Virus record (IMG/VR): IMGVR_UViG_3300011339_000243
DNA from: a virus
Reading direction: 5' to 3' (one strand)
DNA: 35,319 nucleotides
Position numbers and translations under genes: made by a program. Under the pieces are notes generated by a model. It worked only from the letters and a program-made list of their open reading frames with translations. It ran no database searches and was not told the origin of the DNA. Within the stretch, counting starts at the first letter, position 1. Every line of letters begins with the position of its first letter. Below, piece by piece: positions 994-35,319 of this stretch.

Positions 994-3741
994 CTATTCT
1001 GGCGCAAATTGATAGTATTGCTCTGTAACAGGCTCAACAACTTGACTAGGACTAACGGCAGTTGATGCTCCAATGTAGCCAGTACGCAAGACACCCATGC
1101 CCAAAGCAGTGGCAAAATCAGACAAGTCTTCTGGCTTAATCATTGACTTGAAGTCAATCTCTTTACCTTTCTTACTTATGATTTTTGTTGACGCATTTAA
1201 TATTGCATCTACACCACCTTCGTCAAGAAATAACTTTCTATGCGCTTGTTTTGTTGCTTCATCAATGTTTGACTGACCAATCAAAGACAAAATCCTAAAA
1301 CCTTTATTGAAAACGCTTGCAATCTGGTTAACAGCAATTCCAGCAATTCTTTGAGGACTTACACCGCCAGTTGCTCGTTCAAGTGCAGAAGTTTCTTTGA
1401 CAGCAGCAGCACGAATTTGAAGATTTTCAACATTGACCTTACTTGATAATCTTGATACATCAGCCAATGCAGTCAAACTGTTGTAGTGCTTTTGCCCAAA
1501 TATAGACACAAACGCATCTTTGTTATTTTCAAGATATTTCAATGGGTTGTCAGAATCAAGCATACGAGTGACAAGCCCATTTTTCACAGCAAGTTTTGCA
1601 TTGATTTGCTCATCAGATGACAACTTATTAAGGTCTGTAGTAAATTTATTACGGTAACTTTTACCTGTAGAACCTGTCATTTTAGACACTATTCCATCTA
1701 CACCCATTGAATCATAGTCTGACAAGAAACTTTGACCAAGACGAGTTTTTGCTTCTCTTGCTGCATCATCAATAGCAACCTTTTCAGTTGCTAAATATTG
1801 TGCTTTTAATCCAGTATCAGATAATCGTTTCTTTAAAGCAGGAAGCTGATCAACAATGTCGCTATAACCACCATTTGTACTTGTCTTAGACAAAAGATTG
1901 TCCAGTTTTTGTGGGTCAATAAAACCATTCTTGTTTAATGATTGGTTATACAGCTTTGACATAACTGATTTTTCAGCCAAAGAAATACCATCATTTCCAG
2001 CCACACGCAAGAATTGATTCAAGGCTGTTGGACTTGATGCAATCAATGGAGAGATTCTTTCTGCATAATCAGCAGAACTGATTTTTTCAATGGCAGCAGC
2101 ATCTTTAAATGGAACACCAACTTTATTAAAGTAGTCAGTATCCAAGTTAGTCATTGCCTGACCAAAAGGCAATTTTTCACCTCTAAAGTCAACTGTGATA
2201 TTGCCACTAGAGTTTTGAACCTTATCTAATGCTTCATCTACTCTGTTTTGCAGTAGACGCAACTTATCTTGCCTATTCGGATCACGGGTTATTCTGATGT
2301 CTTCAGCCACACGCCTTTTCAATGAATCAAGGCTTGTAATATCCATGCCTATAGACAAGTCTGGTGCAGTGGTAGCTGGCAACATTGTTCCTGCTTCACT
2401 AGGTGCTGCTTGTCTACGCATAGCCTTAAATTTAGAAGACTGCTCACGCACAAGTTTCAATAAAGGAGCTTGCTTTGCCCAAGGATCACCTTGAAACAAT
2501 TGTTCTGCCGTGTTTAACAAATCTTGTGTATCTTGTGCTGGCAACAAAGCACCTTGTTTAGATGCTTGACCTAAAACAGAATCATATTCTGGTGAAAGTG
2601 CGGCTCTTGCAGCCTTTTCTTTAGCTAATACAAGATTCTGTATCGCAGTGCCAATTTCTACAGGTTTAGTTCCACCAGCAATGTTTGCTTGTGATGTTAA
2701 TTTGTTTAATTGATCGTCAATAAAGCCAATTCGTTTATTTAAATCAGTTTCAACTTCAGCAATTTTAGTTTTACCTGATGGCAATTCAGCACTTGGCGCA
2801 GGATAAATTTCTGATGCTCTTTTTTGAACAGCAACCTTTAGATCAGAATATAACTTGTTCAATTCACCAGCAAAGCCAACATCATTCTTTGCAAGGTCTT
2901 CCAATTTTGTTCTGAAAGCAATATTATCTAAACCAGTAACGGCTAAAGCACCTTTTTGACTAGTAACAAACTGAACTCTATCTTGAACAGTTTTTAATCT
3001 TGCTTGAAGTGTTGGGTCTGCTTCAAGTGCTTTTTCTACAAGGTCTTTAGCCCTTGAAATGCCTTCAACATTAGCTAAATCAGCAATATCAAGGTCTTTA
3101 ATGTCAAATCGCTCTTTACCTTTTTCAAAAAGCATTTGACCACCCTTTGCAGTTCCACCTCCAGAAAGCAAAGAAAAAACTAATCCACCTATAACTTGTC
3201 CGGGTAAACCAGCTACTTGTTGACCAATTTCACCGCCAGCTTCACCACCAACGCCAGCCATACCGCCAGTTAAAACATTGACCCCTTTTGTTAATAATCC
3301 TCCACCAACCAAATTAAAAGGATCAACAGCACCTTCTACAAAAGAACCAGCATATCGTTGCAATCCAGTAGCAGGACGCATTTGTGGCTTTAAACCCAAT
3401 CCTTTTTGAATTGATTTGGTTGTTACTTGTTCTAATTCAGGTTGCGATGGGAATGCTCCTGCAAATGTTCCTTGCTCCGCTGCGCTACCAGAGGCAAGTC
3501 TAGCCGCAGTTCCAGTCAACCCACGACCAGCACTCTGCAATAAATAATCAAACATTGATGGAGCAGAAGTAGGCTCATCTCCCATTGTTTGTAATGGAAA
3601 CGGAACTTCGCCTCTTGCATATTCTGGAGATTCCATAATACGCATAGAAGCCGCAATCTCAGCTAATCTACTAGCATCTTCTACATTACCTGCGGCATCA
3701 GCATTACGCAATGCTTCAATCACTTCATTATAAGTTGCCAT
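994..3741 (-). CDS. Large virion-associated protein (915 aa), putative internal/ejection protein
   Basis: Longest ORF and the last of three large consecutive genes after the tail genes. The N-terminus is Gly/Ala-rich. Function is inferred only from size and synteny with podovirus internal core genes. Confidence 0.6.
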   Translation of the reverse strand: MATYNEVIEALRNADAAGNVEDASRLAEIAASMRIMESPEYARGEVPFPLQTMGDEPTSAPSMFDYLLQSAGRGLTGTAARLASGSAAEQGTFAGAFPSQPELEQVTTKSIQKGLGLKPQMRPATGLQRYAGSFVEGAVDPFNLVGGGLLTKGVNVLTGGMAGVGGEAGGEIGQQVAGLPGQVIGGLVFSLLSGGGTAKGGQMLFEKGKERFDIKDLDIADLANVEGISRAKDLVEKALEADPTLQARLKTVQDRVQFVTSQKGALAVTGLDNIAFRTKLEDLAKNDVGFAGELNKLYSDLKVAVQKRASEIYPAPSAELPSGKTKIAEVETDLNKRIGFIDDQLNKLTSQANIAGGTKPVEIGTAIQNLVLAKEKAARAALSPEYDSVLGQASKQGALLPAQDTQDLLNTAEQLFQGDPWAKQAPLLKLVREQSSKFKAMRRQAAPSEAGTMLPATTAPDLSIGMDITSLDSLKRRVAEDIRITRDPNRQDKLRLLQNRVDEALDKVQNSSGNITVDFRGEKLPFGQAMTNLDTDYFNKVGVPFKDAAAIEKISSADYAERISPLIASSPTALNQFLRVAGNDGISLAEKSVMSKLYNQSLNKNGFIDPQKLDNLLSKTSTNGGYSDIVDQLPALKKRLSDTGLKAQYLATEKVAIDDAAREAKTRLGQSFLSDYDSMGVDGIVSKMTGSTGKSYRNKFTTDLNKLSSDEQINAKLAVKNGLVTRMLDSDNPLKYLENNKDAFVSIFGQKHYNSLTALADVSRLSSKVNVENLQIRAAAVKETSALERATGGVSPQRIAGIAVNQIASVFNKGFRILSLIGQSNIDEATKQAHRKLFLDEGGVDAILNASTKIISKKGKEIDFKSMIKPEDLSDFATALGMGVLRTGYIGASTAVSPSQVVEPVTEQYYQFAPE

Positions 3742-3754
3742 AATTACCTCAAGA

Positions 3755-5368
3755 TTATTTTGGTTTTCGATATTTATTGATCAACTCATCGTCAGAAGAT
3801 GTTTGTTTTTGTTCTGAACTTGTTTTTTCATTTGGTTTAATCAATTTAAATTTAGCCAACTGGTCATCTAACTGACGAATTGCAATAGCATAGTTTGGAG
3901 TGTCTTTGTATCCAGCTTGTTCGGCTTGATCTTGAATAAACTTTTTACGTTCTAACAATGCTCCACGATAAATAGCAGTAGCAAATCGCTCTGCTTGTTC
4001 TTTTGTAACACTTGTTCTTTGGCCTGTAAAAAATCCTACAACATCTTGAGCCACCCTGTCTGTTAAACCACCAGTTCTTGCGTATCTAGAAATATCAGCA
4101 TTAGACATATTCTTGCCTTCGCCAGTCAATTTTGCCAAAGCACCCGGCAATGATGCAGCGGCAATGTCATTTGTTGTAGACATTCTGATTGTTTCAATAG
4201 CACTTGGAGCATCAGAAATAACTGTTGATGTTCGATCCATTATTGGGTCTTTGCTTATTTGTGAGCTAAATGCAAGCCAATCTTTAGGAGCAGCAGGTTG
4301 ACCCGGCAAAAGAATTGCACTAGCTTTTGCTCTTGCATTTCCTTCTTCTTCAACTCGTTTATTGACAATAGCTTTTTGTGCTGGCGTTATTTGGGCAAAA
4401 GGTTTGTTATCGTATAGTTCGGCAGAAATTGCATCTCTATCAGAAGTTAAAGATAGTTGCTTATCCGGTCTTTCATAAGTTGCAAGTTCAGCTTCAAGTG
4501 CTGCTCTTTCGCTAGGTCGCAATAACAAACCACCAGTTTCAGGGCTTAACATACGAGTAATTTCAGCAACTCTTGCACCAGTAGCTTGTTTATCAGATAA
4601 CTTATCAGTGCCTTTTAATAGTTCAGCAACTCTTGTTTCAAAAGCAGTGCCATAAAGACCTTCTGCTGAAGCAATTCTTTCAGCCTCTTGAACCTTGGCA
4701 GTTATTCCTTGTCTTGCTGCGCCACTTGCTTGTTTAATCTTCACTTTTGAATTAAGTGCATTTTGGTAAATTTTCATTGCTAATTCAGGCGCAGCTTGTG
4801 CATATTTTTGAGCAATTTGTATATTTTGGTCAGGATTACTTGGGTCTAATTCACGCAAGATTTGCTGTTGCAAACCAATCATCTGCAACTGAGGGTCTTT
4901 AGCACCCAAAGCACCACCAATAGCACCACCCAACTGTTGCCCACCAAGGTACAGGCTGTATTGCGCCTGTTGCATGGGGTCAAGTGACGCATATCGCATT
5001 GCTTGTGCTTGCATTGCTTCATTTTGCTTTTGTTGGTACAAAGCACGTTGCATTGCATCTACTTCAGGAAACATTCCTTGAACAACTGATTGTTGTTGCG
5101 GCTGTTGACCAGAAGTAAACTGAGGCTCAGAAGTAAACATTCCTCCTGATAAACTTTGTAGTTGCGTTTGTGGAGTACCGCCAGCAGCCATCTGATCCGC
5201 ATTAGCTTGCATCATTGCCAAGAATTCTGGTGATGATTCATATGGAACAAAATTAGGACTAGTAGCAACATCAGGATTAGACATATCTCTAATTACAGGA
5301 TCAGGAGTTCCATCTGCCATCACGTTAGTTACTGGCATAGTCATAAGATTAGTTGTATTAACAGCCAT
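3755..5368 (-). CDS. Gln/Ala-rich virion-associated protein (537 aa), putative internal/ejection protein
   Basis: Uninterrupted ORF with low-complexity Q/A/M-rich N-half, 13 nt upstream of the next gene. Function is inferred from synteny only. Confidence 0.55.
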   Translation of the reverse strand: MAVNTTNLMTMPVTNVMADGTPDPVIRDMSNPDVATSPNFVPYESSPEFLAMMQANADQMAAGGTPQTQLQSLSGGMFTSEPQFTSGQQPQQQSVVQGMFPEVDAMQRALYQQKQNEAMQAQAMRYASLDPMQQAQYSLYLGGQQLGGAIGGALGAKDPQLQMIGLQQQILRELDPSNPDQNIQIAQKYAQAAPELAMKIYQNALNSKVKIKQASGAARQGITAKVQEAERIASAEGLYGTAFETRVAELLKGTDKLSDKQATGARVAEITRMLSPETGGLLLRPSERAALEAELATYERPDKQLSLTSDRDAISAELYDNKPFAQITPAQKAIVNKRVEEEGNARAKASAILLPGQPAAPKDWLAFSSQISKDPIMDRTSTVISDAPSAIETIRMSTTNDIAAASLPGALAKLTGEGKNMSNADISRYARTGGLTDRVAQDVVGFFTGQRTSVTKEQAERFATAIYRGALLERKKFIQDQAEQAGYKDTPNYAIAIRQLDDQLAKFKLIKPNEKTSSEQKQTSSDDELINKYRKPK

Positions 5369-5379
5369 GATTTTTTTCC

Positions 5380-6417
5380 TTAGACAGAGTAGTCAGAGCC
5401 AGCCATAAAAGCATTGCCTCTTGTTATATTTGCATTGGTTTGCGGAGCATTCCACCAGTTTGCAACTCCTTGACCAAATTGCTGATTGTTTGCAAGACCA
5501 CTTAGAGCAGTAGCAAATGGGTTGTAGGCATTGGCTTGTTGTTGAGTTAACGCAGCACTTCTACCACCAGTAAGTAATGATTGACCAACATTAGCACCAG
5601 CAGTAGCGGCTCGACCACCTAAAGCAGAACCCATCTCCAAAGGTTGTTGACCAAGTTGCTCAAGAGTAGAACCAGCACCCAAATAAGTTGTAAACGGGTT
5701 CAATGCACTGACTTGACCAGATTGATACTGGCCTAACAATTGAGAACCACTACCAAACAATCCCGCACCAAATGCTGTTCTTTGTTGTCCAGCTTGATCC
5801 GCTTGACTTGCAATTTGTAAATCTTGTTGAGCTAATGCGTTGTAATATGCTTCCATCTCAGGAGAGGCAGCACCAAAGCCAGCCGCACCGCTAGGACGAG
5901 CAGAAGTAGCACCAACAGACAAACCACCACGACCCTGCTGATACAACTGGTTCTGCAATTGAGCCATTGATCGTTCACGGCTAGGTGCAAGCAAATCCTG
6001 TTGCTGTTGCATATATTTTTGTGCAGTTTGTTCAGGAGATTGAGCAAGATATTGCTGACCCAATCCAAACAAACTTTCAGCAGATGTAGACAATGGCAAA
6101 TACTGCTGTTGCGCTTGTTCAGCCTGAGTCAATGCACCGCCTGTAAGAGCCTGTAGACGGTCTTGGTAAGCCCTTAACTCAGGACTGACGTTGTAGCCAG
6201 CACCAATTAGATTACCTTGTGCATCTGTCTGAAAGTTAGATGTACCGTAACGGGTTGTTATGCCAACAGGACGAAACCTTGCCGCATCTGCTGCAATTTG
6301 TGCTGCTTTTACTTGAGCATCGGCTGAAGTACGAGCCGCACTTCTTGCGGCATCTCCTTGCATTGCGCCGCCTAATAGTTGTGTTCCTCCGATTACTAAT
6401 GCTGCTGAAAATGGCAT
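5380..6417 (-). CDS. Gln/Ala/Gly-rich virion-associated protein (345 aa), putative internal protein
   Basis: Uninterrupted ORF. Its ATG lies 1 nt after the GNAT stop. Composition is strongly biased (Q, A, G). Confidence 0.55.
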   Translation of the reverse strand: MPFSAALVIGGTQLLGGAMQGDAARSAARTSADAQVKAAQIAADAARFRPVGITTRYGTSNFQTDAQGNLIGAGYNVSPELRAYQDRLQALTGGALTQAEQAQQQYLPLSTSAESLFGLGQQYLAQSPEQTAQKYMQQQQDLLAPSRERSMAQLQNQLYQQGRGGLSVGATSARPSGAAGFGAASPEMEAYYNALAQQDLQIASQADQAGQQRTAFGAGLFGSGSQLLGQYQSGQVSALNPFTTYLGAGSTLEQLGQQPLEMGSALGGRAATAGANVGQSLLTGGRSAALTQQQANAYNPFATALSGLANNQQFGQGVANWWNAPQTNANITRGNAFMAGSDYSV

Positions 6418-19743: not shown

Positions 19744-21000
19744 TTATATCCCCGAAATAATATCTAGAGGCTCCCACTCATCTTCTTGATCATCAACAAA
19801 GTATGAGGTTACAGCCAGTTGGTCAATGTAGGAAAGGGCATCAGGCAAGTCATCGTGAACACCTTGGGCGGGAAACATCAAGAGTTGATCTTTGAATTCA
19901 TCCCAATCTTCCTCAGAGTTCAGCACAATACGCCCATGCTCAAACCGTCCTTGGAGACTCCAGATAATCCTGTCAGTCTTTTTCCTGTTGCCGTGCGTCA
20001 AGTCAACTATGTGTGAATATACATTATTTTTACGCATTAAGTCGCTCAAATACGGCAAAACTGCGTTTTTTAATGCTCCACGCTCAATTCCTATAGCCAA
20101 AGGACGGTATTCCCGTATCTTTAGTAGGATCGTAGCCGCAGTTTCCCTGATGTCCCACCGACCATAAGCAATCTCTTTGACAAACCATTTGCCATCATCA
20201 GTGACTTTGACAACAGCAATAGCAGTCTGGTCTAGCCTTTTCTTGGAATTTGCAGCTTGTCTAGCCACTTCTTCAAACCCTGCCAGATCGACAGCAATGT
20301 AGTACGAGCCATGTTCAGGTTCAGTTCCATATTTAATCCATTCTTCTTTAAAAACATCACTTCCAGCATTGTCAAAAGATGCCATATATTCGGTCTTGAA
20401 TGCAAAAGAACTTAAGGTTTTCTTTGCATTTTCAATTTCTTCTTTGTCAATTAATTCATTATCATAAGTAGTATAAGACCAAGATTTATAGTCATTATTT
20501 TCACTTTGACCAAGTTGGTACAGATCATAAAAATGATTTCTACCCTTTGGAGTGCCTATAAACATGGCATCTCCTTTTCTGTCTGACAGGGAAGCACGAA
20601 TAACTTGCTCCCAAACTGAGGGCTTCATGTCAGCATATTCATCCAGCACCACATAAGACAAGCTAACGCCTCGTAAGGTATCTGGTCTATCTGCGCCACG
20701 AATATAGATTACAGCACCATTTATCAATGTAATCTCTTGATTATTGATATGACTTGATGCAATTACATCTTTTCCTAACTCATTCAAGACATTCCAAATA
20801 ATAACTCTAGCTTGCCCTTGGGTTGGAGCAACATACATTACGCCAGACCCTTGTGGACAAACCAAACCTTTAAGAAGCAGGGTTACAGCCGCAAGTCTTG
20901 ATTTACCGCATCGCCTTCCAGCACAGATGACTTTAAATCGTTTGGGGTCAACAATAACTTCCTGTTGCCACTTCAAAAGTTGAAAATTAAGATCACTCAT
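19744..21000 (-). CDS. Terminase large subunit (418 aa)
   Basis: Walker A-like CAGRRCGKS, Walker B-like YVVLDEYADM and a C-terminal nuclease-like region with conserved acidic residues. Position is adjacent to HNH/TerS. Confidence 0.85.
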   Translation of the reverse strand: MSDLNFQLLKWQQEVIVDPKRFKVICAGRRCGKSRLAAVTLLLKGLVCPQGSGVMYVAPTQGQARVIIWNVLNELGKDVIASSHINNQEITLINGAVIYIRGADRPDTLRGVSLSYVVLDEYADMKPSVWEQVIRASLSDRKGDAMFIGTPKGRNHFYDLYQLGQSENNDYKSWSYTTYDNELIDKEEIENAKKTLSSFAFKTEYMASFDNAGSDVFKEEWIKYGTEPEHGSYYIAVDLAGFEEVARQAANSKKRLDQTAIAVVKVTDDGKWFVKEIAYGRWDIRETAATILLKIREYRPLAIGIERGALKNAVLPYLSDLMRKNNVYSHIVDLTHGNRKKTDRIIWSLQGRFEHGRIVLNSEEDWDEFKDQLLMFPAQGVHDDLPDALSYIDQLAVTSYFVDDQEDEWEPLDIISGI

Positions 21001-21475
21001 TTTTTAAATACCTGATTGCACTTTCTAACTTTGAAATGTCATCGTAAAACTTACCAATGGCTGTATTGCATAAATCACACAAAATTCCACGAACCGTATT
21101 TGTTTTGTGGCAATGGTCAACCACCATTCTTGTTTTTGGGACTCCAACCTCTGGTTTGATCTTACAAATAGCACAACCACCACCTTGTTCGGCAACCATA
21201 GCATCAAACATTTGAGTGGTCAATCCATAACTTGATTTCAAATGCCACCGCCTTTGACTTTCTTGATGTTTTGCTTTGTGTTCTGGGTTTGTTTGTAGTT
21301 TTATTGCTTGTTTGCTAAGTTTTGACCAACGAAACTCATCATTCTCACCATACTTCTTTTTTTCTAAAATCTTCATGCACTCTTTGCATCTAGGTCGAAC
21401 ACCTTTAATTCCATTGGCAACAGGATAATATTCTGAAAGGGGTTTGTCTTCTTTGCAGTGGGTACATTTTTTCAT
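20993..21475 (-). CDS. Endonuclease VII / HNH-type nuclease (160 aa)
   Basis: N-terminal Cys-rich zinc motifs CTHC...CKEC. The C-terminal VVDHCHKTNTVRGILCDLCNTAIG is the classic recombination endonuclease VII/HNH signature. It overlaps the TerL start by 8 nt. Confidence 0.75.
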   Translation of the reverse strand: MKKCTHCKEDKPLSEYYPVANGIKGVRPRCKECMKILEKKKYGENDEFRWSKLSKQAIKLQTNPEHKAKHQESQRRWHLKSSYGLTTQMFDAMVAEQGGGCAICKIKPEVGVPKTRMVVDHCHKTNTVRGILCDLCNTAIGKFYDDISKLESAIRYLKNE

Positions 21476-21510: not shown

Positions 21511-21891
21511 CTAGGATTTGCTTTCTATGTCTTCAGCATCTATAGGGTTATCCCCTATGACTACACCGCCAATGCCAGAAATAGTTATGTTAACTGCTGA
21601 CCTTTGCTTACCTTCTTTTTCAAACAAAGAAACAGGAAGCATCCGATCCATACAAAGTTTGATAGCAGCCATTTGAGCAGGGTGTTCGTCATTCATGGCA
21701 ATCTCAACTGCCTTGTGAACAACATTAGCACCTGCACTTTTGATTAATAGGTCTTTGAGTTCTTTGACTTGTTGTTGTTCAGTCTTAGGCAAAACAAGAG
21801 ATTGAGGGTTATCAGCATACTTCCTCAAGGTCATAGCACCAGAACCCTTTGGGCGACCTCTTGTTTTCTTGAAGCTATCTATCACGTTCAT
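21511..21891 (-). CDS. Putative terminase small subunit (126 aa from the ATG at 21891)
   Basis: First gene of the late operon. It has a basic N-terminus KKTRGRPKGSG and a helical core. The track ORF extends to a GTG at 21987; I prefer the first ATG (MNVIDSF...). Confidence 0.5.
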   Translation of the reverse strand: MNVIDSFKKTRGRPKGSGAMTLRKYADNPQSLVLPKTEQQQVKELKDLLIKSAGANVVHKAVEIAMNDEHPAQMAAIKLCMDRMLPVSLFEKEGKQRSAVNITISGIGGVVIGDNPIDAEDIESKS

Positions 21892-21979
21892 CTTTTGTCC
21901 AGTTGTGGGAAGAAGTTGTTGTTCGGTCTGACAACCCAGACAGTCGGCGATTGCAGGACTCAATGCCTTGCCATAGCGA

Positions 21980-21999
21980 ACCAACACGGCTGGAGACTG
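21980..21999. repeat. 20-nt direct repeat ACCAACACGGCTGGAGACTG, copy A
   Basis: Exact second copy at 22131-22150 (151-bp spacing). An 18-nt overlapping match occurs at 24686-24703. Confidence 0.9.
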
Positions 22000-22130
22000 C
22001 CTTGCAAGTAGGCTCTAATTTCGGCGAACCACAATCCCCATGCGTGTAGGTTGTTGGTGACCAGCGTTGCGACCTACGGGTTTGCAGACCCACCCGATCA
22101 GGTATCTGGCGTACAGTTTCGTTACTTGAC

Positions 22131-22150
22131 ACCAACACGGCTGGAGACTG
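22131..22150. repeat. 20-nt direct repeat ACCAACACGGCTGGAGACTG, copy B
   Basis: Identical to 21980-21999. Both copies are followed about 35 nt later by CCATGCGT. Confidence 0.9.
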
Positions 22151-22612
22151 TTGCGCTACCCCAGTAGTCCCTAGAGTCAATCTCCATGCGTCTTGGAAGT
22201 TAGCGCACACTTTACATCAGAATCAGATTCTTGTATAGTGGTGACAAACGGGGGCATCACCCACCCCTCTATGCGGTTGAGCCGACCAAGTAGGATAAAC
22301 GTAGTGAACCATGTAGTTCTCAAGTAAAGCAACAGACTTGAACGGGGCTAGTAGCGTGGAGTAGTGATCTGACAGTCACCACTAACTTAGCATAAACGAG
22401 AGGCTCTCCTTTAAAAAGGATTCACCCACCACGGGTGACATTCCTATTTGTCTTCTTCCTTCAACCAGATAGCCTTTGTTAGTGTTAAACACTTAGATTG
22501 GCTTTTTCAGTGCGGAGGAGGCTGCCACAATATTACAGACACACGACCACCCCCTCCCCCTATCGAAGTAAGCACTCACTTACAAGTAAGCACTAACTAA
22601 CACTAGATGCAA

Positions 22613-22629
22613 ATGAGAATCATTCTCAT
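22613..22629. promoter_or_regulatory. Perfect 17-bp palindrome ATGAGAAT-C-ATTCTCAT (Fur-box-like 7-1-7 operator)
   Basis: The core TGAGAATCATTCTCA differs from the TGATAAT-N-ATTATCA Fur 7-1-7 consensus only at one symmetric position per arm. It is flanked by direct CTAGATG repeats. Confidence 0.6.
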
Positions 22630-22666
22630 CTAGATGTTTGTATGTACTAACGTAGGGTAAATCTAA

Positions 22667-22683
22667 ATGAGAATCATTCGCAA
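22667..22683. promoter_or_regulatory. Second, imperfect copy of the palindrome (ATGAGAATCATTCGCAA)
   Basis: 15/17 identical to the 22613 site and 54 bp downstream of it. A third half-site CATTCTCAT lies at 22726-22734. Confidence 0.5.
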
Positions 22684-22909
22684 ATAGAAGGGATGCAGCA
22701 TCATTCATGTACTGCGAATACAAACCATTCTCATCTAAACAAAACTATCGGGTTACACTTTTCAATAGACTATATATATGGGCAAGATTGGTGCAGAGTG
22801 TTTACTAACTTCCCTTGATTGGTGCATGATTTCACCATATGAAATGACTTGCACCATGTTGGTGATTCCACATTATGAAATTCTATATAAATCAATGGGT
22901 TAGTAGTGT

Positions 22910-22939
22910 CTGACAATTGGCATAGAACGTGCATAGTAT
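22910..22939 (+). promoter_or_regulatory. Candidate sigma70-type early-left promoter (CTGACA - 18 nt - TAGTAT)
   Basis: Hexamers read by eye about 45 nt upstream of the first early ATG (22982). Spacing is slightly long and the match imperfect. Confidence 0.35.
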
Positions 22940-22981
22940 TTATTGTCCAAAGTCGGGCAGTCACTTTAAGAGGCGTTCAGA

Positions 22982-23560
22982 ATGACACACATACAAACCC
23001 GTGAACAATGGCTCTCACAAGCAACCTCAGAGCTTCGTGGCCTGTTTAAACAGCATGGCGTTGACTTACCTCATGAGGTTCGCTCATCATGCGGCTTCCC
23101 TTCAAAATCAGCCCTCAGTGCTAAGAACCGCAGAATCGGTGAGTGCTGGTCTGCCCGAGCCTCAGCCGACAGTCACGCAGAGATTTTCATCTCACCTACC
23201 ATCAGCGACTCAATGCGGGTTCTCGATATTCTCGCTCATGAGCTTGTCCATGCTTGTCACCCGAACGATGGCCACGGTTCTAAGTTCGGCAAAACGGCTC
23301 GCGCCATCGGCTTAGAGGGTAAGCTGACAGCAACCACGGCTGGCCCTGAGTTCAAAGTATGGGCAGAACCCGTTCTGGCTCGGCTCGGCGTTTACCCTCA
23401 TGCTGACCTGATACCATCGAACGCTCAAAAGAAACAGACCACGCGCCTGTTGAAATGTGTCTGCCGTGATTGTGGTTACACTGTCCGCGTGGCTGGTAAG
23501 TGGCTCACTGAGATGGGCGCGCCTCACTGCCCTGACCACGGCGAGATGGACAGCGTTTAA
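22982..23560 (+). CDS. SprT-like zinc metalloprotease-domain protein with C-terminal zinc ribbon (192 aa)
   Basis: HExxH motif in ILAHELVHACHPNDGHG and a C-terminal CVCRDCG...HCPDHG. RBS AAGAGG lies upstream. It is the first gene of the early-left operon. Confidence 0.7.
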   Translation: MTHIQTREQWLSQATSELRGLFKQHGVDLPHEVRSSCGFPSKSALSAKNRRIGECWSARASADSHAEIFISPTISDSMRVLDILAHELVHACHPNDGHGSKFGKTARAIGLEGKLTATTAGPEFKVWAEPVLARLGVYPHADLIPSNAQKKQTTRLLKCVCRDCGYTVRVAGKWLTEMGAPHCPDHGEMDSV

Positions 23561-24524: not shown

Positions 24525-24788
24525 ATGACCACCGACACCAACACCGACCTTGAAATTCAAGTGACCACCATCGGCACAATTGATAATGGTTGCGATGGCT
24601 CTCAGCAATATATCCTTCTGAAGTGTTTAAACGACTACCTGACAGAAGATGAGGCTTGGGCATATCTGCACCCACTTGTATACCGTGACACCAACACGGC
24701 TGGCGCATATTTCTGCCACATTGTCGAGACAATCCAAAAGTCTGACGATTCAGTTATCTGCATCGTTCACCATCAGTTTAATAACTGA
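24525..24788 (+). CDS. Hypothetical early protein (87 aa)
   Basis: ORF with an ATG 2 nt after the preceding stop. It contains the 18-nt match to the 22127-22144 repeat. Confidence 0.6.
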   Translation: MTTDTNTDLEIQVTTIGTIDNGCDGSQQYILLKCLNDYLTEDEAWAYLHPLVYRDTNTAGAYFCHIVETIQKSDDSVICIVHHQFNN

Positions 24789-26612: not shown

Positions 26613-27052
26613 GTTTTAATGAATCCTAGTGCTTCCCTTGCGAATCGCAAAGAAATGGGGGTTATTCTGTCTCCAGCTTCATGCCTAGCAATGATGCGCC
26701 TAGCCCAATCTTTCGGGTCTTGTTTTCCAGTGCTTACAGACATTCTCAATTTTTCCATCTCTGCTGCTACTTTGTCTGGTTGAGCTGGCGGCGATGGAAG
26801 CATAGGCGGCGTGGCTCTTGGTGCTTTTCGGCAAAGGTTTCGAAACTCAATGACATTTGGAGGTTTTTCAGGAAGGTTATCCAAAGCCCATGCAACATCA
26901 TCAAGATGCGGCGTAAAACCGCTTAATTCATGCGCCCAAGCCGTTTTAACGTCTTCAATAGGGGTTGATTCCCACATTCCATCCCATGACCTTCCATAAC
27001 TTGCGGCAAGACGTTTAAACAGTCTATCAATCACTTTTTCAGGCAACATCAT
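26609..27052 (-). CDS. Lambda P-like replication protein (helicase-loader family), 147 aa
   Basis: The pattern LFKRLAASYGRSWDGMW...VKTAWAHELSGF...PPNVIEFRNLCRK parallels the lambda P N-region (…FSQLLATFPAS…RRQWVLAF…PSPGQFVAWCRE). It sits downstream of the DUF1376-type gene. Confidence 0.55.
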   Translation of the reverse strand: MMLPEKVIDRLFKRLAASYGRSWDGMWESTPIEDVKTAWAHELSGFTPHLDDVAWALDNLPEKPPNVIEFRNLCRKAPRATPPMLPSPPAQPDKVAAEMEKLRMSVSTGKQDPKDWARRIIARHEAGDRITPISLRFAREALGFIKT

Positions 27053-27822
27053 TTCAACTCCAAAAAGTTTGACGCTTCAATAATTGGTTTTCTATCGTTT
27101 TCAGGCCATTTCTCGCCAGTCATTTCTTCCCATCGTTTTCGCTTCAATTCTTGGTCACGCTCAAAAAATGACTTATTTGTTTGTTTTGCAGAAATATGCT
27201 CAATTTTGGGTTGAAACCACTCTGCTTTGAATGATTGCCAATTTCGCAACACAGTTTCTTTTAAAGCGTCTTCAAGGGAAAACCCTGCTTTATCGGCTTC
27301 TTTCTGAATTCCATCAATGACCAACTGCGTGACCTGTGCTTTCTTGGTCTTTCGATGTTTGACAAAATCATCCCATACTGATGATGAAACGCCGTCAGGC
27401 GTAGCAACGACAGTTGCTTTATCTTTAATTGGTTTATGGTTATTGGTTATTGGTTCTTGGTTATTGGTTGCTATTGGGGGCGCATTAGGGGGGCTATTAG
27501 CCTCCCCATTGCTATCCTTATGCCATCGCTTTGCCGCACCTTTTTTCCCATCCTCTGAAAACTTGCGGTATTTGGCAATTTCCTCATCAGCACGGGGATT
27601 TACAAAGCCTTTTTCAGTTGAGACAAAGAACTCATTAAGTACAGTCAATACTTCTTGTTCGTTGTCCCGCATTCCTATTTGTCTGGCTATATCACGCTGT
27701 TTAATAGGTACTTCGTGTAAATAATAATGGTCAAGCAATCGCCTGAAAGCCAAGTCTTCTATAAGACTCAAATGATGTGTGTGGGACTTGTAGTCGCCAA
27801 TATGGAACTGATAAAAATGCAT
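27049..27822 (-). CDS. DUF1376 (YdaU-like) domain protein, putative replication initiator/organiser (257 aa)
   Basis: The N-terminus MHFYQFHIGDYKSHTHHLSLIEDLAFRRLLDHYY is the DUF1376 signature. It is ATGA-coupled to the P-like gene. Confidence 0.7.
   Translation of the reverse strand: MHFYQFHIGDYKSHTHHLSLIEDLAFRRLLDHYYLHEVPIKQRDIARQIGMRDNEQEVLTVLNEFFVSTEKGFVNPRADEEIAKYRKFSEDGKKGAAKRWHKDSNGEANSPPNAPPIATNNQEPITNNHKPIKDKATVVATPDGVSSSVWDDFVKHRKTKKAQVTQLVIDGIQKEADKAGFSLEDALKETVLRNWQSFKAEWFQPKIEHISAKQTNKSFFERDQELKRKRWEEMTGEKWPENDRKPIIEASNFLELK
27430..27471. repeat. Six tandem heptamers TGGTT(A/C/T)N inside the DUF1376 gene
   Basis: TGGTTTA TGGTTAT TGGTTAT TGGTTCT TGGTTAT TGGTTGC, read directly. 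They encode the linker PPIATNNQEPITNNHKPI on the minus strand. Confidence 0.85.
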
Positions 27823-27927
27823 AACAACCTTACTTCATTGGTCATCTTCACAGGATGAAACATTGGCAGGACGGTGAAGAATCGTCTTTTCGGGTTGCAC
27901 TCCCTAGCCACGTTTCGCATGACTATA

Positions 27928-31845: not shown

Positions 31846-32054
31846 CTTTTACCGATAATGAAATTGCTGTTATGGCTGCTGAAGCGTGTAGAACAGATGT
31901 TGGCTTTAAGTCATGGACTATTTCAACTAAACACTTGCAAATCTTTGCTGAAATGATTGCATCTAAAGAGCGCAGGGAGTGTTCAAAGGTTTGTGCAGAA
32001 TTAGGCGAATGGGCTTGTGTTCACGCCATTGAAGCAAGAGGAGAAAAAGCATGA
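31842..32054 (+). CDS. Hypothetical protein (70 aa)
   Basis: ATGA-coupled ORF. No motif recognised. Confidence 0.55.
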   Translation: MTFTDNEIAVMAAEACRTDVGFKSWTISTKHLQIFAEMIASKERRECSKVCAELGEWACVHAIEARGEKA

Positions 32055-32545
32055 GTGATATTGAACAAATTCTTAAAAGACTTAGGTTTGACAAAGAAAC
32101 AGGGCAGTTTTTTTGGATTAAGCCAAGCAAATATCATTTAGATTTAATTGGAAAAGTTGCGGGTTGCATTGGAAGATCAAACCCAAATAAAAAATACTGG
32201 GTAATTAAGTTAAACGGGAAAGCATATAAAAGAGCAAGACTTGTTTATTTGATAACTCATGGGAAGTGGCCTGAACCTTGTGTAGATCATATAAATGGAA
32301 ATTCATTAGATGATAGACCTGAAAATCTTAGACAAGCCTCCATTATGGAAAATGCTTGGAATCATAAAAAAAGAGCAAGACGCATTCAACTGCCAATTGG
32401 AGTTAGAAACCTTGCTTCAGGGAAATTTCAAGCAAGGATCGGTTATTGCGGTAAGCAAATCCACCTTGGAGCATTTCAATCACCTAATGAGGCATCAGCC
32501 GCATACCAATCAAAAAGGAAAGAGTTATATGGACAATTTGCCTGA
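32051..32545 (+). CDS. HNH homing endonuclease with AP2-type DNA-binding domain (164 aa)
   Basis: CVDHINGNSLDDRPENLRQASIMENAWN (HNH_3-type) followed by GVRNLASGKFQARIGYCGKQIHLGAFQSPNEASAAY (AP2-type). The segment is AT-rich. Confidence 0.8.
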   Translation: MSDIEQILKRLRFDKETGQFFWIKPSKYHLDLIGKVAGCIGRSNPNKKYWVIKLNGKAYKRARLVYLITHGKWPEPCVDHINGNSLDDRPENLRQASIMENAWNHKKRARRIQLPIGVRNLASGKFQARIGYCGKQIHLGAFQSPNEASAAYQSKRKELYGQFA

Positions 32546-35120: not shown

Positions 35121-35302
35121 TTTTTCTCCGGTTCAGGTTTAACTAACATTTCTGGACAAGTAGCTGTAGCAGTACAAATAGGGGGTTTGCACTCAGCATT
35201 CTGCCAATTTTGAGGGTCTTGGCAAGGATAGCGAAATCTATCTTCACAGCCTGTTAGCAGCACCAACAGGATTGACAGACCCCAAATACAGTAGATATTC
35301 AT
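35117..35302 (-). CDS. Small Cys-rich outer-membrane-type lipoprotein (61 aa)
   Basis: Signal peptide with lipobox LLTG|C. The mature 42 aa carry 4 further Cys and are Pro-rich. ATGA-coupled to the holin gene. The 5' 110 nt are duplicated at 1-110. Confidence 0.7.
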   Translation of the reverse strand: MNIYCIWGLSILLVLLTGCEDRFRYPCQDPQNWQNAECKPPICTATATCPEMLVKPEPEKK

Positions 35303-35319
35303 TTATCTTTCTCCCTTTC
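35193..35319. repeat. Second copy of the 127-bp terminal duplication
   Basis: Identical to 1-127. Confidence 0.95.

Follow-up and report, generated by a model that had tools for sequence, protein, structure and literature searches.

A tract at positions 21892 to 22981 of a phage genome (IMG/VR record IMGVR_UViG_3300011339_000243) is probably neither junk nor a packaging site. It carries two conserved structured RNAs on opposite strands, a clamp hairpin (E) and a multi-helix RNA (RNA#2), together with operator-like DNA repeats. With slightly better than even confidence, we propose that these are two constrained RNA structures with separate roles, which we infer to be that of an exchangeable accessory RNA cassette for E and that of an early/late regulator for RNA#2. 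All positions refer to the window, meaning the whole 35,319-nt stretch of DNA that was analyzed.

A noncoding tract between late and early genes

The tract is a three-part noncoding stretch of a complete, podovirus-like genome of ~35.2 kb, and it marks the point of divergence between a leftward late operon (packaging, structural, and lysis genes) and the rightward early genes. It is bordered by a leftward ORF with its ATG at 21891, a start that is fixed because the matches of relatives begin at residue 1 (MNVIDSFK), and by a rightward SprT-like ORF that starts at 22982. The original prediction held that no credible ORF lies in between, and we agree. The only longer ORFs, both GTG initiated and both on the minus strand, encode 111 aa (21875 to 22210) and 64 aa (22770 to 22964), and neither had a match in Pfam or PHROGs. 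Since the DNA under the 111-aa ORF is missing in 53 of 94 related arrangements, this ORF is not a gene. We regard it as extremely improbable that the tract encodes small proteins, whether from these two ORFs or from short ORFs within RNA#2. ORFs of 41 to 111 aa do exist in several frames, but the longest consists of the sequence of two E hairpins and their spacer (E1, Y, and E2, described below), whose insert lengths are not multiples of three; across the E family, insert lengths occur in all three frames. Furthermore, the core of RNA#2 is near-invariant at every position without codon periodicity, its variable stems change through compensatory pairs, and 1-nt indels among relatives rule out coding in a downstream C-tract.

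The left part of the tract had been described as G+C rich. Its G+C content (0.52 at 21850 to 22300) does exceed that of the left flank (~0.39 to 0.45) and of the tract's own right half (0.35 to 0.40 at 22600 to 22900), but not that of the right-flank genes (0.53 to 0.55). Single sequences folded no better than is ordinary, with a z-score of -0.75 over 323 nt and scores between -0.9 and -2.95 for the parts, and such thermodynamic z-scores are uninformative here. Similarly, the 9-mer TCACCCACC is present at both 22257 and 22422, but we estimate that about two repeated 9-mers are expected by chance in 1.1 kb. The statistically strongest feature of the tract had been overlooked. This is an exact 20-mer, ACCAACACGGCTGGAGACTG, at 21980 and 22131, which has a partner block, CAATCyCCATGCGTsT, at 22032 and 22178. 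Three ~50-nt repeats with 17-bp palindromes had been passed over as well.

We searched Rfam release 15 with the whole window at gathering thresholds and with both strands of 21800 to 23050 at E ≤ 10. The first search returned a single match, int-alpA at 27845 to 27914. The second returned unrelated snoRNA/sRNA noise, the best at 21 bits against a threshold of 43 bits, so that none of the suggested classes (GOLLD, ROOL, HEARO, raiA, and group I/II introns) and no riboswitch, ribozyme, or C4/CI RNA was matched on either strand. The idea of a structured RNA is supported by comparative evidence, in the form of covariation among homologs of both E and RNA#2, although what emerged was a set of modules spread over the two strands and not one giant of the GOLLD/ROOL type.

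In the complete 35.2-kb genome, we detected no integrase, transposase, reverse transcriptase, RNA polymerase, sigma factor, or Q-like antiterminator. The only recombination-type proteins are Sak, YqaJ, and Holliday-junction resolvases, and the portal protein has at most 28% identity to that of any cultured phage.

Clamp hairpins upstream of the terminase-small-like gene

The repeated blocks form two hairpins of ~75 nt each, which lie upstream of the terminase-small-like gene on the minus (late-gene) strand and are the only E copies in the complete genome. The first, E2, belongs to an "initiator" subtype and spans 22128 to 22200, with arms at 22196 to 22178 and 22150 to 22132. Its RNA reads 5'-CCAAGACG-CA-UGGAGAUUG-(27-nt insert)-CAGUCUCCA-GC-CGUGUUGG-3', and the insert consists of a hairpin plus an AGCGCAA linker. 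E2 scored 71.4 bits on the minus strand versus 20.8 bits on the plus strand with CM R1, and its MFE was -30.7 versus -22.7 kcal/mol. The second, E1, of a "follower" subtype, spans 21977 to 22054, with arms at 22050 to 22032 and 21999 to 21981. It is preceded by CACCAACAA, has the 5' arm CCUACACG-CA-UGGGGAUUG and a 32-nt insert, and scored 64.5 bits on the minus strand versus 19 bits on the plus strand. A third candidate at 24691 was rejected as a 13-nt partial copy within an ORF, with a CM score of only 9.5 bits.

Between E2 and E1, on the same strand, lies spacer Y (22054 to 22134), which can be closed by a 7-bp helix of GUUGGUG (22134 to 22128) with CACCAAC (22060 to 22054). We considered whether Y is a tRNA. 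Neither a cloverleaf match to the Rfam tRNA model (RF00005) nor an ARAGORN tRNA was found in the window, which left only the acceptor-like helix. At the same position in five relatives (L118, L024, L029, L045, and L101), tRNA matches of 40 to 49 bits were found, with aberrant anticodon regions. On the other side of E1, a comparison of filled and empty sites assigned 21892 to 21976 to the distal part of the insertion plus the 5' UTR of the terminase-small-like gene, including a right-hand CUUCC junction repeat (…ACUUCUUCC/CACAACUGGACAAAAG-AUG, minus strand). Two further ideas were dropped. A pseudoknot between the E2 linker (AGCGCA) and an upstream UGCGCU is not kept in relatives. As for E inserts acting as antisense RNAs or guides, we found no complementarity of ≥11 nt elsewhere in the genome, and 9- to 10-mer matches were at chance level.

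Invariant arms around a hypervariable insert

Members of the E family share a fold in which two ~19-nt near-invariant arms form P1 (8 bp), a CA/GY 2x2 internal loop, and P2 (9 bp). These helices enclose a hypervariable insert of 4 to 104 nt, for which there are dozens of unrelated families. Across 133 distinct copies, 95.5% of cells were paired, and the observed covariation score was reached in 0 of 500 shuffles. When the set was anchored on the 5' arm only, P2 was ~99% paired, by GC, AU, GU, UA, and CG types, and P1 was compensated in divergent members. The outer five pairs of P1 are often mismatched, with G·G in ~45% and U·U in ~15% of copies, and they compete with the GUUGGUG/CACCAAC helix that closes spacers.

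The G·U pairs in E mark the gene strand: by our tally, reading E on the opposite strand gives 235 A·C cells versus 4 G·T cells. In 127 of 132 copies, E folded better on the gene strand (mean of -33.8 versus -26.3 kcal/mol), and it was co-oriented with the downstream ORF in ~85% of cases. Co-orientation was complete with adjacent true tRNAs (4 of 4 loci) and with abutting tRNA-like genes (5 of 5), whose acceptor helix is held in common with the tails of E. In one E family, the inserts covary too, with U·G pairs on the same strand.

Distribution and genomic context of E

E was found in hundreds of uncultured phage contigs, and each of two different E probes had >120 IMG/VR contigs among the matches listed. 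In contrast, blastn of the tract and the E consensus against 50,697 records of cultured phages found nothing except a 23-nt partial match at the end of MW202484. Scanning 185,579 species genomes with a 17-mer yielded 66 matches, of which 62 lacked a second arm (chance) and 4 were short MAG contigs that hold E. Judged from just three short MAG contigs, the hosts are probably Burkholderiales. No paper in the library searched contains the E arm sequence, and keyword searches for a comparable phage RNA returned nothing relevant.

The usual place of E is ahead of a terminase gene, which may belong to any of several unrelated families, or within an array of tRNAs or tRNA-like units. The genes downstream of it encode small or large terminases from at least five unrelated clusters. 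Other copies follow a gene, lie between two convergent ORFs, or neighbor replication genes, and the number per phage genome ranges from 0 to 4. Clustering of 1,772 neighboring ORFs (from 119 partial loci) revealed no family common to all E loci, which speaks weakly against a partner protein. In 9 of 129 contexts, the first E begins 2 to 5 nt after an intrinsic terminator, a surprising position for a co-transcribed element if there is no read-through.

These contexts bear on the more conservative part of the original prediction, namely, that the tract or its left half is a packaging recognition site (cos/pac with terminase-binding repeats) or a replication origin. In lambda-like genomes, cos is immediately upstream of the terminase-small gene, and the tract is immediately upstream of a terminase-small-like gene. 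The tract also contains repeated blocks, with iteron-like and palindromic repeats in its right third, and an HNH/EndoVII-type nuclease gene lies between the two terminase genes. However, the repeated blocks are RNA-type helices with a strand asymmetry of G·U versus A·C, and they are dispensable, as more than half of the close relatives do without them. An element that occurs at no fewer than five unrelated terminase families, and also by replication genes and tRNAs, is a misfit for a terminase-specific site. Moreover, a 127-nt terminal repeat of the contig, which may just reflect circular assembly overlap, is at 1/35193, far from the tract, and a replication-initiator-like DUF1376 gene is 4 kb away. 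We consider a packaging or origin function very unlikely.

Presence, absence, and exchange of E among relatives

Among the 94 related arrangements, 53 have no E, 38 have one, and 3 have two, and those without E keep the same late genes. Comparing filled and empty sites, we found CTTCC at both junctions in three allele pairs, with one target region well sampled. This repeat could equally be a target-site duplication or a shared recombination core. Relatives also include two-copy and one-copy alleles and inserts swapped between identical flanks.

Despite the RNA-type signature of the family, a single-stranded DNA site that folds would also account for the arm covariation and for tolerated G·T pairs. 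The hairpins could be recombination sites of this kind, integron-attC-like or transposon-end-like, at which a host or helper recombinase recognizes the folded strand and inserts, excises, and exchanges cassettes; any RNA would then be incidental. The alleles just described would be expected from such activity, and E is built like attC: a central unpaired spacer separates two helical boxes, and the terminal structure varies greatly in length. The arm ends (CACCAAC…GTTGGTG) resemble RYYYAAC…GTTRRRY, and the empty site, in the plus-strand orientation, is cut at G/TT (…GGGAAG/TTAGC). However, the complete genome lacks a recombinase other than Sak, YqaJ, and the Holliday-junction resolvases, and in each E core only 5 of 7 positions agree with the attC consensus. 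Extrahelical bases are absent, the unpaired region being a symmetric loop, and the arms of E are invariant in sequence, whereas attC sites are conserved only in structure. In addition, the acceptor helix in common with tRNA-like genes and the constant co-orientation with true tRNAs indicate an RNA-level context for E, and the covarying insert family has its U·G pairs on the same strand as the arms. On this evidence, we find the DNA-site explanation rather unlikely.

If E acts as RNA, it could be an essential cis regulator of late transcription, either a processive antitermination RNA like put of HK022 or an RNA that a Q/N-like factor recognizes. In many phage lineages, E stands at the head of a long late operon, ahead of the terminase genes and often behind a terminator. 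Its extreme conservation across unrelated phages would suit binding to the conserved host RNA polymerase, and no phage RNA polymerase was found in the genome. Yet the majority of arrangements in this phage group dispense with E while retaining the same late genes, copy number falls to 0 and rises to 4, and some copies lie downstream of genes, between convergent ORFs, or within tRNA arrays. Where a terminator is adjacent, E lies after rather than before it. The put RNA comprises two specific stem-loops without a variable insert, a description that sets it apart from E. An essential regulatory role thus described is quite improbable in our assessment. E probably serves as an accessory RNA cassette that can be exchanged in the late leader.

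A conserved promoter and RNA#2 on the plus strand

To the right of E2, a sigma-70-type promoter on the plus strand, P(+), spans 22211 to 22239 (TTTACA-17 nt-TATAGT; 10 of 12 consensus positions), with a predicted start at ~22246/22247. Its spacer carries the dyad AGAATCnGATTCT, and 33 relatives show no variation in its elements ACTTTACA and TCTTGTATAGTG. In the reverse direction, this DNA may form a weak promoter (TATACA-17-TAAAGT) directed at E2 and the late genes.

The promoter is followed by RNA#2, a multi-helix RNA of ~195 nt (22247 to 22439, plus strand; nhmmer, 183 bits; 105 distinct homologs) that is confined to this ~35-kb phage group. It is composed of a 5' hairpin (22250 to 22265), a closing helix (22266-22273/22397-22403), inner helices (22303-05/22385-87, 22309-14/22354-59, 22319-29/22337-47, and 22361-63/22380-82), and two terminal hairpins (22407 to 22420 and 22422 to 22438). 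Over the 47 predicted pairs, 93.6% of cells were paired, compensatory changes occurred in 17 pairs, and 276 cells were doubly changed, compared with a maximum of 125 in 300 shuffles. The core is so invariant that many helices lack covariation. Pair counts favor the plus strand (~486 G·U versus ~55 A·C cells, tallied from the pair table), while RNAalifold energies discriminate weakly between strands (-68.8 versus -64.2). Like E, RNA#2 had no Rfam match, and neither target complementarity nor a processing signal was identified for it. In relatives without E, its 5' end is only ~70 nt from the start codon of the terminase-small-like gene.

Several of the structures originally predicted belong to RNA#2. 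The hairpin TCACCC-ACCAC-GGGTGA is present at 22422 to 22438, and the pairing of GGGGG with CCCC, as well as the CACCC...GGGTG hairpin, are real parts of this RNA. A GGTGA/TCACC stem fared less well, since relatives differ in its GGTGA arm (22240 to 22244) and transcription is predicted to start at or after this arm. Read leftward, 22410 to 22438 was detected by a terminator scan as an intrinsic-terminator-like hairpin on the minus strand (UCACCC-GUGGU-GGGUGA, then AUCCUUUUUAAA). This hairpin is kept in relatives. On the plus strand, with only a poor U-tract, it is the last hairpin of RNA#2.

Farther right, GGAGGAGG (22514 to 22521), AATATT (22529 to 22534), and the C-tract CCACCCCCTCCCCC (22547 to 22560) make up a block, 22514 to 22560, that is invariant or near-invariant in the 33 relatives. 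The C-tract had been reported correctly, and GGAGGAGG is present, one base away from the position first given. The block may be a 3' extension of RNA#2, to which the C-tract would then belong, with GGGGG at 22251 to 22255 pairing with CCCCC at 22556 to 22560; RNAalifold predicts this long-range pairing, which lacks covariation. RNA#2 would accordingly end at 22439 or ~22560, for a length of at most ~315 nt. Alternatively, the block may be a leftward promoter region.

What RNA#2 does could be explained in more than one way. It might act on the rightward early operon, as a riboswitch-like attenuator whose leader senses a ligand or factor, and not on the late operon through antisense pairing or promoter competition. 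The multi-helix fold behind the invariant promoter is complex and highly conserved, and after it comes a hairpin with a pyrimidine-rich tail (22422 to 22450). Furthermore, UCACCCACC occurs at both 22257 and 22422, and each copy is able to pair with GGGUG at 22433 to 22437, which would allow both a terminator and an anti-terminator form. On the plus strand, 540 nt separate RNA#2 from the next gene. However, the plus-strand tail past the hairpin lacks a clean run of U, relatives are mosaic in the stretch that leads from RNA#2 to the early genes, no Rfam riboswitch class matched, and the alternative pairing lacks covariation because all of its partners are invariant. An attenuator is, to our mind, unlikely, and RNA#2 is probably a regulator at the point where early and late transcription diverge.

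Operator-like repeats before the early genes

The right part of the tract looks different in nature. A tandem 18-nt repeat at 22566 to 22601 (AAGTAAGCACTCACTTAC and AAGTAAGCACTAACTAAC) has an iteron-like core, AGTRAGCAC, and occurs in 2 to 4 copies in relatives. It is followed by the three ~50-nt direct repeats (22586 to 22739), each with a 17-bp palindrome-like site: ATGAGAATCATTCTCAT at 22613 to 22629, a copy with 2 mismatches at 22667 to 22683, and a degenerate third at ~22717 to 22733. A search with the palindrome gave 4 matches compared with 0.3 expected, a number reached in 0 of 100 shuffles. Putative operators at 22786 to 22881 comprise GATTGGTGCA, found twice (22786 and 22817), and the dyads TGATTTCACCATATGAAAT and TGATTCCACATTATGAAAT (22827 and 22863). 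At 22910 to 22946 on the plus strand, before the SprT-like early gene, are weak sigma-70-like promoter candidates that match 9 of 12 positions of the consensus. From its sequence, 22560 to 22980 looks like operator- or iteron-type protein-binding DNA plus an early promoter.

A model for E and RNA#2

We propose that E units and their spacers are exchangeable accessory RNA cassettes rather than essential signals. In this phage group, the CTTCC site that separates the promoter block from the first late gene would receive the cassettes, which would then form the 5'-terminal part of the late transcript; elsewhere, E follows a terminator or sits among tRNAs. The constant clamp would be read by a conserved RNA-binding or RNA-processing factor, probably of the host. 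Our best guess for this reader is a double-strand endonuclease of the RNase III type, although host RNase III alone places no obvious demand on near-invariant arm sequences. Neighboring tRNA-like units may add cuts by RNase P/Z. The outcome would be a stable hairpin that protects the 5' end of the late mRNA or that is freed as a small RNA displaying its variable apical domain.

RNA#2 and its promoter, for their part, may act at the switch between early and late transcription. P(+) shares its 29 bp with the sole leftward promoter-like sequence adjoining the late genes, so the two could compete. If late transcription starts further right, RNA#2 would be antisense to the late leader. On the rightward transcript, the duplicated UCACCCACC could also confer attenuator-like potential.

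A bolder version, which we put forward only tentatively, holds that E units are horizontally exchanged small-RNA cassettes of phages. Each would have a handle that is read by a cellular factor, an apical domain under diversifying selection, tRNA-like punctuation, expression from the late leader, and arms that mediate swaps between unrelated phages. Independently of this, RNA#2 would represent a new class of phage regulatory RNA, placed at a bidirectional promoter with overlapping readings. A role for E as decoy or guide in phage-host or phage-phage conflict, if true, would account for why invariant arms go together with dozens of insert families and with the replacement of alleles at a single locus. 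If confirmed, E would be a structured-RNA family outside Rfam with hundreds of members and evident mobility among many unrelated uncultured phages, and a new accessory cargo for the late-leader slot, where an RNA cassette takes the place of a protein moron. It would also be a tractable case for asking which host factor reads the clamp. RNA#2, if confirmed, would be a candidate RNA-based early/late switch in a phage group without a recognizable repressor, Q protein, or RNA polymerase.

Comparison with known systems

Correia repeats (CREE/NEMIS) and other bacterial MITE-like repeats resemble E in being short nonautonomous insertions with terminal inverted repeats (in E, the imperfect 19-nt arms) and a short flanking direct repeat that are polymorphic between close relatives. 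CREE are co-transcribed with neighboring genes and form RNase III-sensitive hairpins; they have a conserved core and a TA target and are found in many copies per genome in bacterial chromosomes (PMC2649163, PMC2229807). A long hairpin near the 5' end of an mRNA, with a possible effect on expression, may be common to both. However, E has a hypervariable interior with no conserved internal sequence, occurs in few copies per phage genome (two here) across many unrelated phages, and is essentially absent from bacterial genomes. E is further distinguished by its RNA-type G·U strand asymmetry, its compensatory changes, and its chaining with tRNA-like units.

attC sites also fold on one strand, with R and L boxes, an unpaired spacer, and a terminal structure of varying length; what is conserved is structure, not sequence, and the sites require extrahelical bases and the IntI integrase and bound cassettes that carry ORFs (PMC2727003, PMC5027507). 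E is comparable in its imperfect inverted repeats, its helical boxes of 8 and 9 bp on either side of the 2x2 loop, its variable terminal structure and strand asymmetry, and its placement at the bounds of exchangeable cassettes in arrays. In contrast, its arms are invariant in sequence, its symmetric CA/GY loop comes without bulges, its cores (CACCAAC and GTTGGTG) deviate from the attC consensus, the genome has no integrase, and the cassettes are noncoding (hairpin inserts and tRNA-like spacers).

Among phages, PeSL units join an early promoter to a terminator stem-loop and are shuffled as modules in a single lineage of T4-type phages (PMC2839356, PMC4122927). PeSL and E are both short conserved noncoding motifs that border insertion, deletion, and replacement polymorphisms, and each is plausibly a recombination handle and an expression signal at once. 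Unlike PeSL, E brings along neither promoter hexamers nor a U-tract, consists of two parts with a variable insert between them, is common to phages with unrelated terminases, and shows RNA covariation. The RNase III hairpins of the T7 group and the lambda N-leader and sib sites are irregular structures of ~20 bp or more with a small conserved internal loop and sequence conserved among sites. Like them, E is located in leaders or intercistronic regions of long transcripts, is co-oriented with genes, and has 8 + 9 bp around its 2x2 loop, usually extended by an insert hairpin. T7 sites are fixed in every genome copy, one per junction, without a hypervariable insert or mobility; E differs in having both.

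GOLLD and ROOL are RNAs of 500 to 800 nt that are often near tRNAs, and RNA#2 differs from them in its smaller size and in having no match to an Rfam model. With regard to the features of a sigma-70 small-RNA gene, RNA#2 has the invariant TTTACA-17-TATAGT promoter, a supported structure, and a 3' hairpin, although one without a clean plus-strand U-tract. The CI RNA of P4, C4 of P1/P7, sar of P22, and OOP of lambda are antisense or immunity RNAs at regulatory junctions of temperate phages. RNA#2 resembles these small regulatory RNAs in being phage encoded, structured, putatively promoter driven, and located where early and late genes diverge.

Genome setting of the tract

The first and last 127 nt of the window are identical (1-127 and 35193-35319; the first 100 nt were found again at 35193), and this terminal direct repeat marks the window as a complete phage genome, either circular or terminally redundant, with a unit length of ~35,192 bp. 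One long late operon occupies the minus strand. It contains a terminase-small-like open reading frame (ORF; 21511-21891, minus strand) that lacks a family match and has 255 relatives in IMG/VR, together with minus-strand genes for TerL, an SU10-type portal, the major head protein, a tail fibre, and an adaptor, and it continues over the contig junction with spanin and endolysin genes (34800-33854, minus strand). Separating the terminase-small-like gene from TerL is an endonuclease VII/HNH-like nuclease gene with an N-terminal zinc-ribbon (20993-21475, minus strand), which looks like a homing-endonuclease insertion. Three large late ORFs of 915, 537, and 345 amino acids (994-6417, minus strand) had no Pfam or PHROG matches and presumably encode an undescribed type of virion, tail, or ejection protein. 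Early genes run from 22982 on the plus strand (SprT-like, Sak annealase, YqaJ exonuclease, and HNH), and among them a DUF1376 replication protein and a RuvC-like resolvase are encoded on the minus strand; there is an overlap between a second HNH_3 ORF (32051-32545) and the beginning of the YqaJ exonuclease gene. The complete genome yielded no RNA polymerase, reverse transcriptase, integrase, or transposase, and portal identity to the closest cultured phages is at most 28%. The sole Rfam match in the genome, an int-alpA RNA (RF02996; 27845-27914, minus strand), scores 37.1 bits where the gathering score is 35.8 and sits immediately 5' of the DUF1376 replication-initiator-like gene (27049-27822, minus strand); no integrase or alpA gene to accompany it was found in the genome.

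Since the late operon runs leftward on the minus strand and the early genes run rightward from 22982, the tract between them (21892-22981) is the exact early/late divergence point. It is a real, noncoding, multipart region with putative regulatory and accessory functions. The tract is ORF-poor, and the motifs listed in the original prediction are present where it placed them, save GGAGGAGG, which is 1 base off. By themselves these motifs do not exceed chance: a 1.1-kb sequence should contain about two repeated 9-mers, and the folding energies of single sequences are unremarkable. The large structured RNA that it proposed stood in a modified form, as two RNA modules, neither of which has a match among Rfam models.

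A conserved clamp hairpin

The strongest signal in the tract had gone unseen in the original prediction. It is an exact 20-mer, ACCAACACGGCTGGAGACTG, at 21980 and 22131, with CAATCyCCATGCGTsT coming 27 to 32 nt after each copy. The 20-mer is found exactly in at least 120 IMG/VR contigs, and in all listed contigs it forms one arm of a bipartite unit that reads CCAACACGGCTGGAGACTG-(variable)-CAATCyCCATGCGTsTTGG on the window plus strand and whose arms are hardly ever found singly. The arms pair as an 8-bp helix (P1), a 2x2 internal loop, and a 9-bp helix (P2). We call this clamp hairpin E; the window copies are E1 (21977-22054) and E2 (22128-22200), both on the minus strand. On the plus-strand reading, non-Watson-Crick cells were A·C in 235 cases versus G·T in 4 (our own tally), and these become G·U on the minus strand. 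Folding on the minus strand was also more stable for 127 of 132 copies, and a covariance model built on that strand gave the window copies 71.4 and 64.5 bits versus ~20 bits for the reverse reading, with no further copy in the window genome. Pairing held in 95.5% of cells, and none of 500 shuffles reached the observed covariation.

The first sample was anchored on one arm, and we therefore collected a second sample with the other arm, ACGCATGGGGATTG, as the anchor. The partner arm was present in 96 of the 117 listed matches. In this second sample P2 was ~99% paired, by GC, AU, GU, UA, and CG pairs, and GGGG paired with CCCC. Divergent members compensated in P1 as well, for example CCAUACG/CGUAUGG in the related phage locus L315, and the internal loop sets CA against GC, with GU instead in ~20% of copies. 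A 13-nt match to the plus-strand 20-mer encoding the clamp 3' arm, CCAACACGGCTGG (24691-24703, plus strand), lies inside an ORF with the partner arm absent; it is probably due to chance, because the covariance model gives it only 9.5 bits.

The insert within P2 is 4 to 104 nt long and belongs to dozens of unrelated sequence families, typically forming a hairpin stacked on P2 followed by a 3' linker of 6 to 10 nt. Insert lengths spread over all three frames, so the insert is not coding. That the tract as a whole encodes protein has a vanishingly small probability, and for practical purposes we exclude it. The E arm sequence was not found in the literature searched.

E is a dispensable insertion

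Within the window's own phage group, we determined in 94 arrangements how far the start codon of the terminase-small-like gene lies from the 5' end of the second RNA module (RNA#2, described below). This distance was ~70 nt in the 53 arrangements with no E copy, ~250 nt in the 38 with one, and ~400 nt in the 3 with two, the window included. Filled and empty sites aligned cleanly: on the late strand, the empty site reads …CUAACUUCC/CAUUCUGUUGGACAAAAG-AUG and the filled site …CUAACUUCC/AAGACG…GUGUUGGUAUUUCUUCC/CUUUACAGGACAAAAG-AUG. CUUCC occurs at both junctions, and likewise in a second allele; in a third filled/empty pair, from a different flank family, the right-hand junction is identical. 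Other contig pairs with identical flanks carried one versus two E units, or wholly different inserts between the same arms. Such near-identical-flank pairs, with insert swaps, one or two units, or filled and empty sites (related loci L061 versus L044, L170 versus L129, L003 versus L006, L117 versus L130, L191 versus L040, L102 versus L374, and L364 versus L471), are direct evidence of cassette turnover. Because copy number varies from 0 to 2 among relatives, sites are filled or empty, and inserts differ between the same arms, E is dispensable and is mobile or recombinationally exchanged. E should thus be neither a signal on which late operons depend nor a site that terminase recognizes. Dispensability also contradicts the idea that E is an essential antitermination element, which we regard as very unlikely.

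Genomic context of E

The inferred RNA strand of E matches that of the next ORF in ~85% of cases. The genes that follow E code for small or large terminases belonging to at least five unrelated clusters (TerL 24 to 37% identical to that of the window) or for a DUF1376 replication protein. The conservative alternative in the original prediction, a cos/pac site or origin, is highly improbable, being contradicted by this association with unrelated terminases, by the strand asymmetry, and by dispensability.

At four loci from other phage lineages, E is interleaved with arrays of genuine tRNA genes (Met, Arg, Pro, and Tyr), always on the same strand (L148:4069-4752, minus; L166:7944-8554, plus; L110:7950-8182, plus; L126:1919-2182, minus). 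L148 carries four clamp hairpins within 700 nt, immediately after an intrinsic terminator and ahead of a glutaredoxin-like gene. At five further loci, the Rfam tRNA model matched a tRNA-like gene abutting E with 40 to 49 bits (L118:1618-1688, minus; L024:1067-1174, plus; L029:3844-3951, plus; L045:1484-1591, plus; L101:653-756, plus). These genes have normal D and T arms and either a 6-nt anticodon loop or a 42- to 54-nt expansion of the anticodon/variable region; ARAGORN, run on those of L118 and L101, called neither. They may be processing punctuation or decoys. Their acceptor 5' strand, GUUGGUG, overlaps the final 5 nt of E, and the conserved leader of the following E is formed by their acceptor 3' strand, CACCAAC-A, so E arrays are E-Y-E-Y chains, where Y is the spacer. 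Arrays start with an "initiator" subtype, CCAAGACG, which contains a G·G mismatch, and a "follower" subtype, CACCAACAA-CYWACACG, comes after every spacer. An intrinsic terminator precedes the first E in 9 of 129 contexts, its U-tract ending 2 to 5 nt before E. In the window, E2 is the initiator and E1 the follower, and the degenerate spacer between them is closed by GUUGGUG/CACCAAC.

The architecture and cassette behavior of E would fit a folded single-stranded DNA recombination site of the attC kind. We consider this unlikely, given that E has no integrase, core-site matches, or extrahelical bases and that such a site leaves the coupling at the tRNA level unexplained.

E is essentially absent from bacteria: across 185,579 species genomes, a full copy was seen in just 4 contigs, all short and from MAGs, 3 of them binned as Burkholderiales. 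It was not found in cultured phages. The sole clamp match in the deposited-phage collection covers 23 nt of the 3' arm and lies 45 nt short of the end of an uncultured Caudoviricetes record from Manatee Spring (MW202484.1:41695-41717).

A predicted promoter and a second structured RNA

A conservation scan showed that 22195-22607 is kept in 50 to 97 related loci and that the sequence rightward of it is mosaic. In an alignment of 33 relatives, ACTTTACA-N-TCTTGTATAGTG is invariant and constitutes a predicted sigma-70-type promoter, TTTACA-17-TATAGT (22211-22239), matching the consensus at 10 of 12 positions. It is followed by the nearly invariant RNA#2 core of ~170 nt, broken by variable stems. 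The RNA#2 24-mer GGTTGAGCCGACCAAGTAGGATAA is exact in at least 120 contigs, and a hidden Markov model placed the window copy at 22247-22439 (183 bits). The fold predicted by RNAalifold from 105 distinct homologues has a hairpin at its 5' end, is closed by an invariant helix (22266-73/22397-403), and contains inner helices that are clearly compensated: 22303-05/22385-87 is 100% paired and switches among AU/GC, GC/AU, and UA/CG, and 22327-29/22337-39 and 22361-63/22380-82 show up to 5 and up to 4 pair types per position, respectively. Overall, 93.6% of cells are paired and 17 of 47 pairs have double changes, with 276 doubly changed cells versus a maximum of 125 in 300 column shuffles and 2 to 98 for slid structures. 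G·U cells outnumber A·C cells (~486 versus ~55, our own tally), which, with the promoter direction, assigns RNA#2 to the plus strand.

The G-run/C-run pairing and the CACCC…GGGTG hairpin of the original prediction turned out to be parts of RNA#2, and its C-tract (22547-60) and GGAGGAGG are conserved. The GGTGA arm of its proposed stem is not. RNAalifold pairs GGGGG (22251-55) with CCCCC (22556-60) of the C-tract; as this pairing shows no covariation, a ~315-nt form of RNA#2 is only possible.

RNA#2 was present in 41 of the 80 loci that the TerS-like protein retrieved. Among the matches listed for the two E arms, it was present in 24 of the 119 loci obtained with the 3'-arm 20-mer and in 1 of the 106 obtained with the 5'-arm 14-mer. 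It is confined to the ~35-kb phage group of the window.

To the right are tandem AGTRAGCAC repeats (22566-22601), three ~50-nt repeats (22586-22739) each with one 17-bp palindrome-like site, ATGAGAATCATTCTCAT (4 matches versus 0.3 expected), two more repeat pairs with dyad symmetry (22786-22881), and weak promoter matches ahead of the SprT-like gene. The repeat region (22566-22881), which varies among relatives, looks like operator or iteron DNA. The promoter spacer (within 22215-22233) holds a dyad, AGAATCnGATTCT, that shares the half-site AGAAT with the ATGAGAATCATTCTCAT palindromes (22613-22683), with the half-sites spaced differently; a single DNA-binding protein might recognize the two.

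A possible mechanism

We somewhat favor an overall picture of two RNA modules, E cassettes and RNA#2, at the early/late divergence; any single molecular mechanism for E is clearly less likely than not. The 29-bp promoter block would act as a strong promoter rightward and, read in reverse, as a weak leftward promoter, TATACA-17-TAAAGT, starting at the first bases of E2 or, in E-less relatives, ~30 nt ahead of the late gene. The two readings, with the dyad in their spacer, would be mutually exclusive for RNA polymerase. Alternatively, late transcription could begin further right, near the invariant AATATT (22529-34), in which case the transcript would meet a leftward terminator (22438-22410) and cross RNA#2 in antisense. 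With either late start, RNA#2 and its promoter would be positioned to gate late expression. Because the duplicated UCACCCACC allows alternative RNA#2 pairings with GGGUG (22433-37), it could also attenuate the rightward transcript.

In lambdoid phages, the late-leader slot holds tRNAs and morons. E cassettes appear to sit in this slot, and our best guess is that the constant clamp serves as a recognition and processing module. It could be an RNase III-type substrate, aided by RNase P/Z cuts at adjoining tRNA-like units, and processing might leave the late mRNA with a stable hairpin at its 5' end, free a small RNA showing the variable domain, or both. The invariance of the arms across phages with unrelated proteins argues for a conserved host factor as partner, and the hypervariability and allelic replacement of the inserts argue for diversifying selection.

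Comparison with known systems

In its presumed mode of action, E is closest to cotranscribed MITE-type hairpins such as Correia elements (PMC2649163) and to T7-type RNase III sites, and its population behavior resembles that of PeSL cassettes (PMC2839356, PMC4122927) and integron cassettes (PMC2727003). E differs from each of these four systems in at least one defining feature. For RNA#2, the resemblance to promoter-driven regulatory RNAs of temperate phages is confined to its position.
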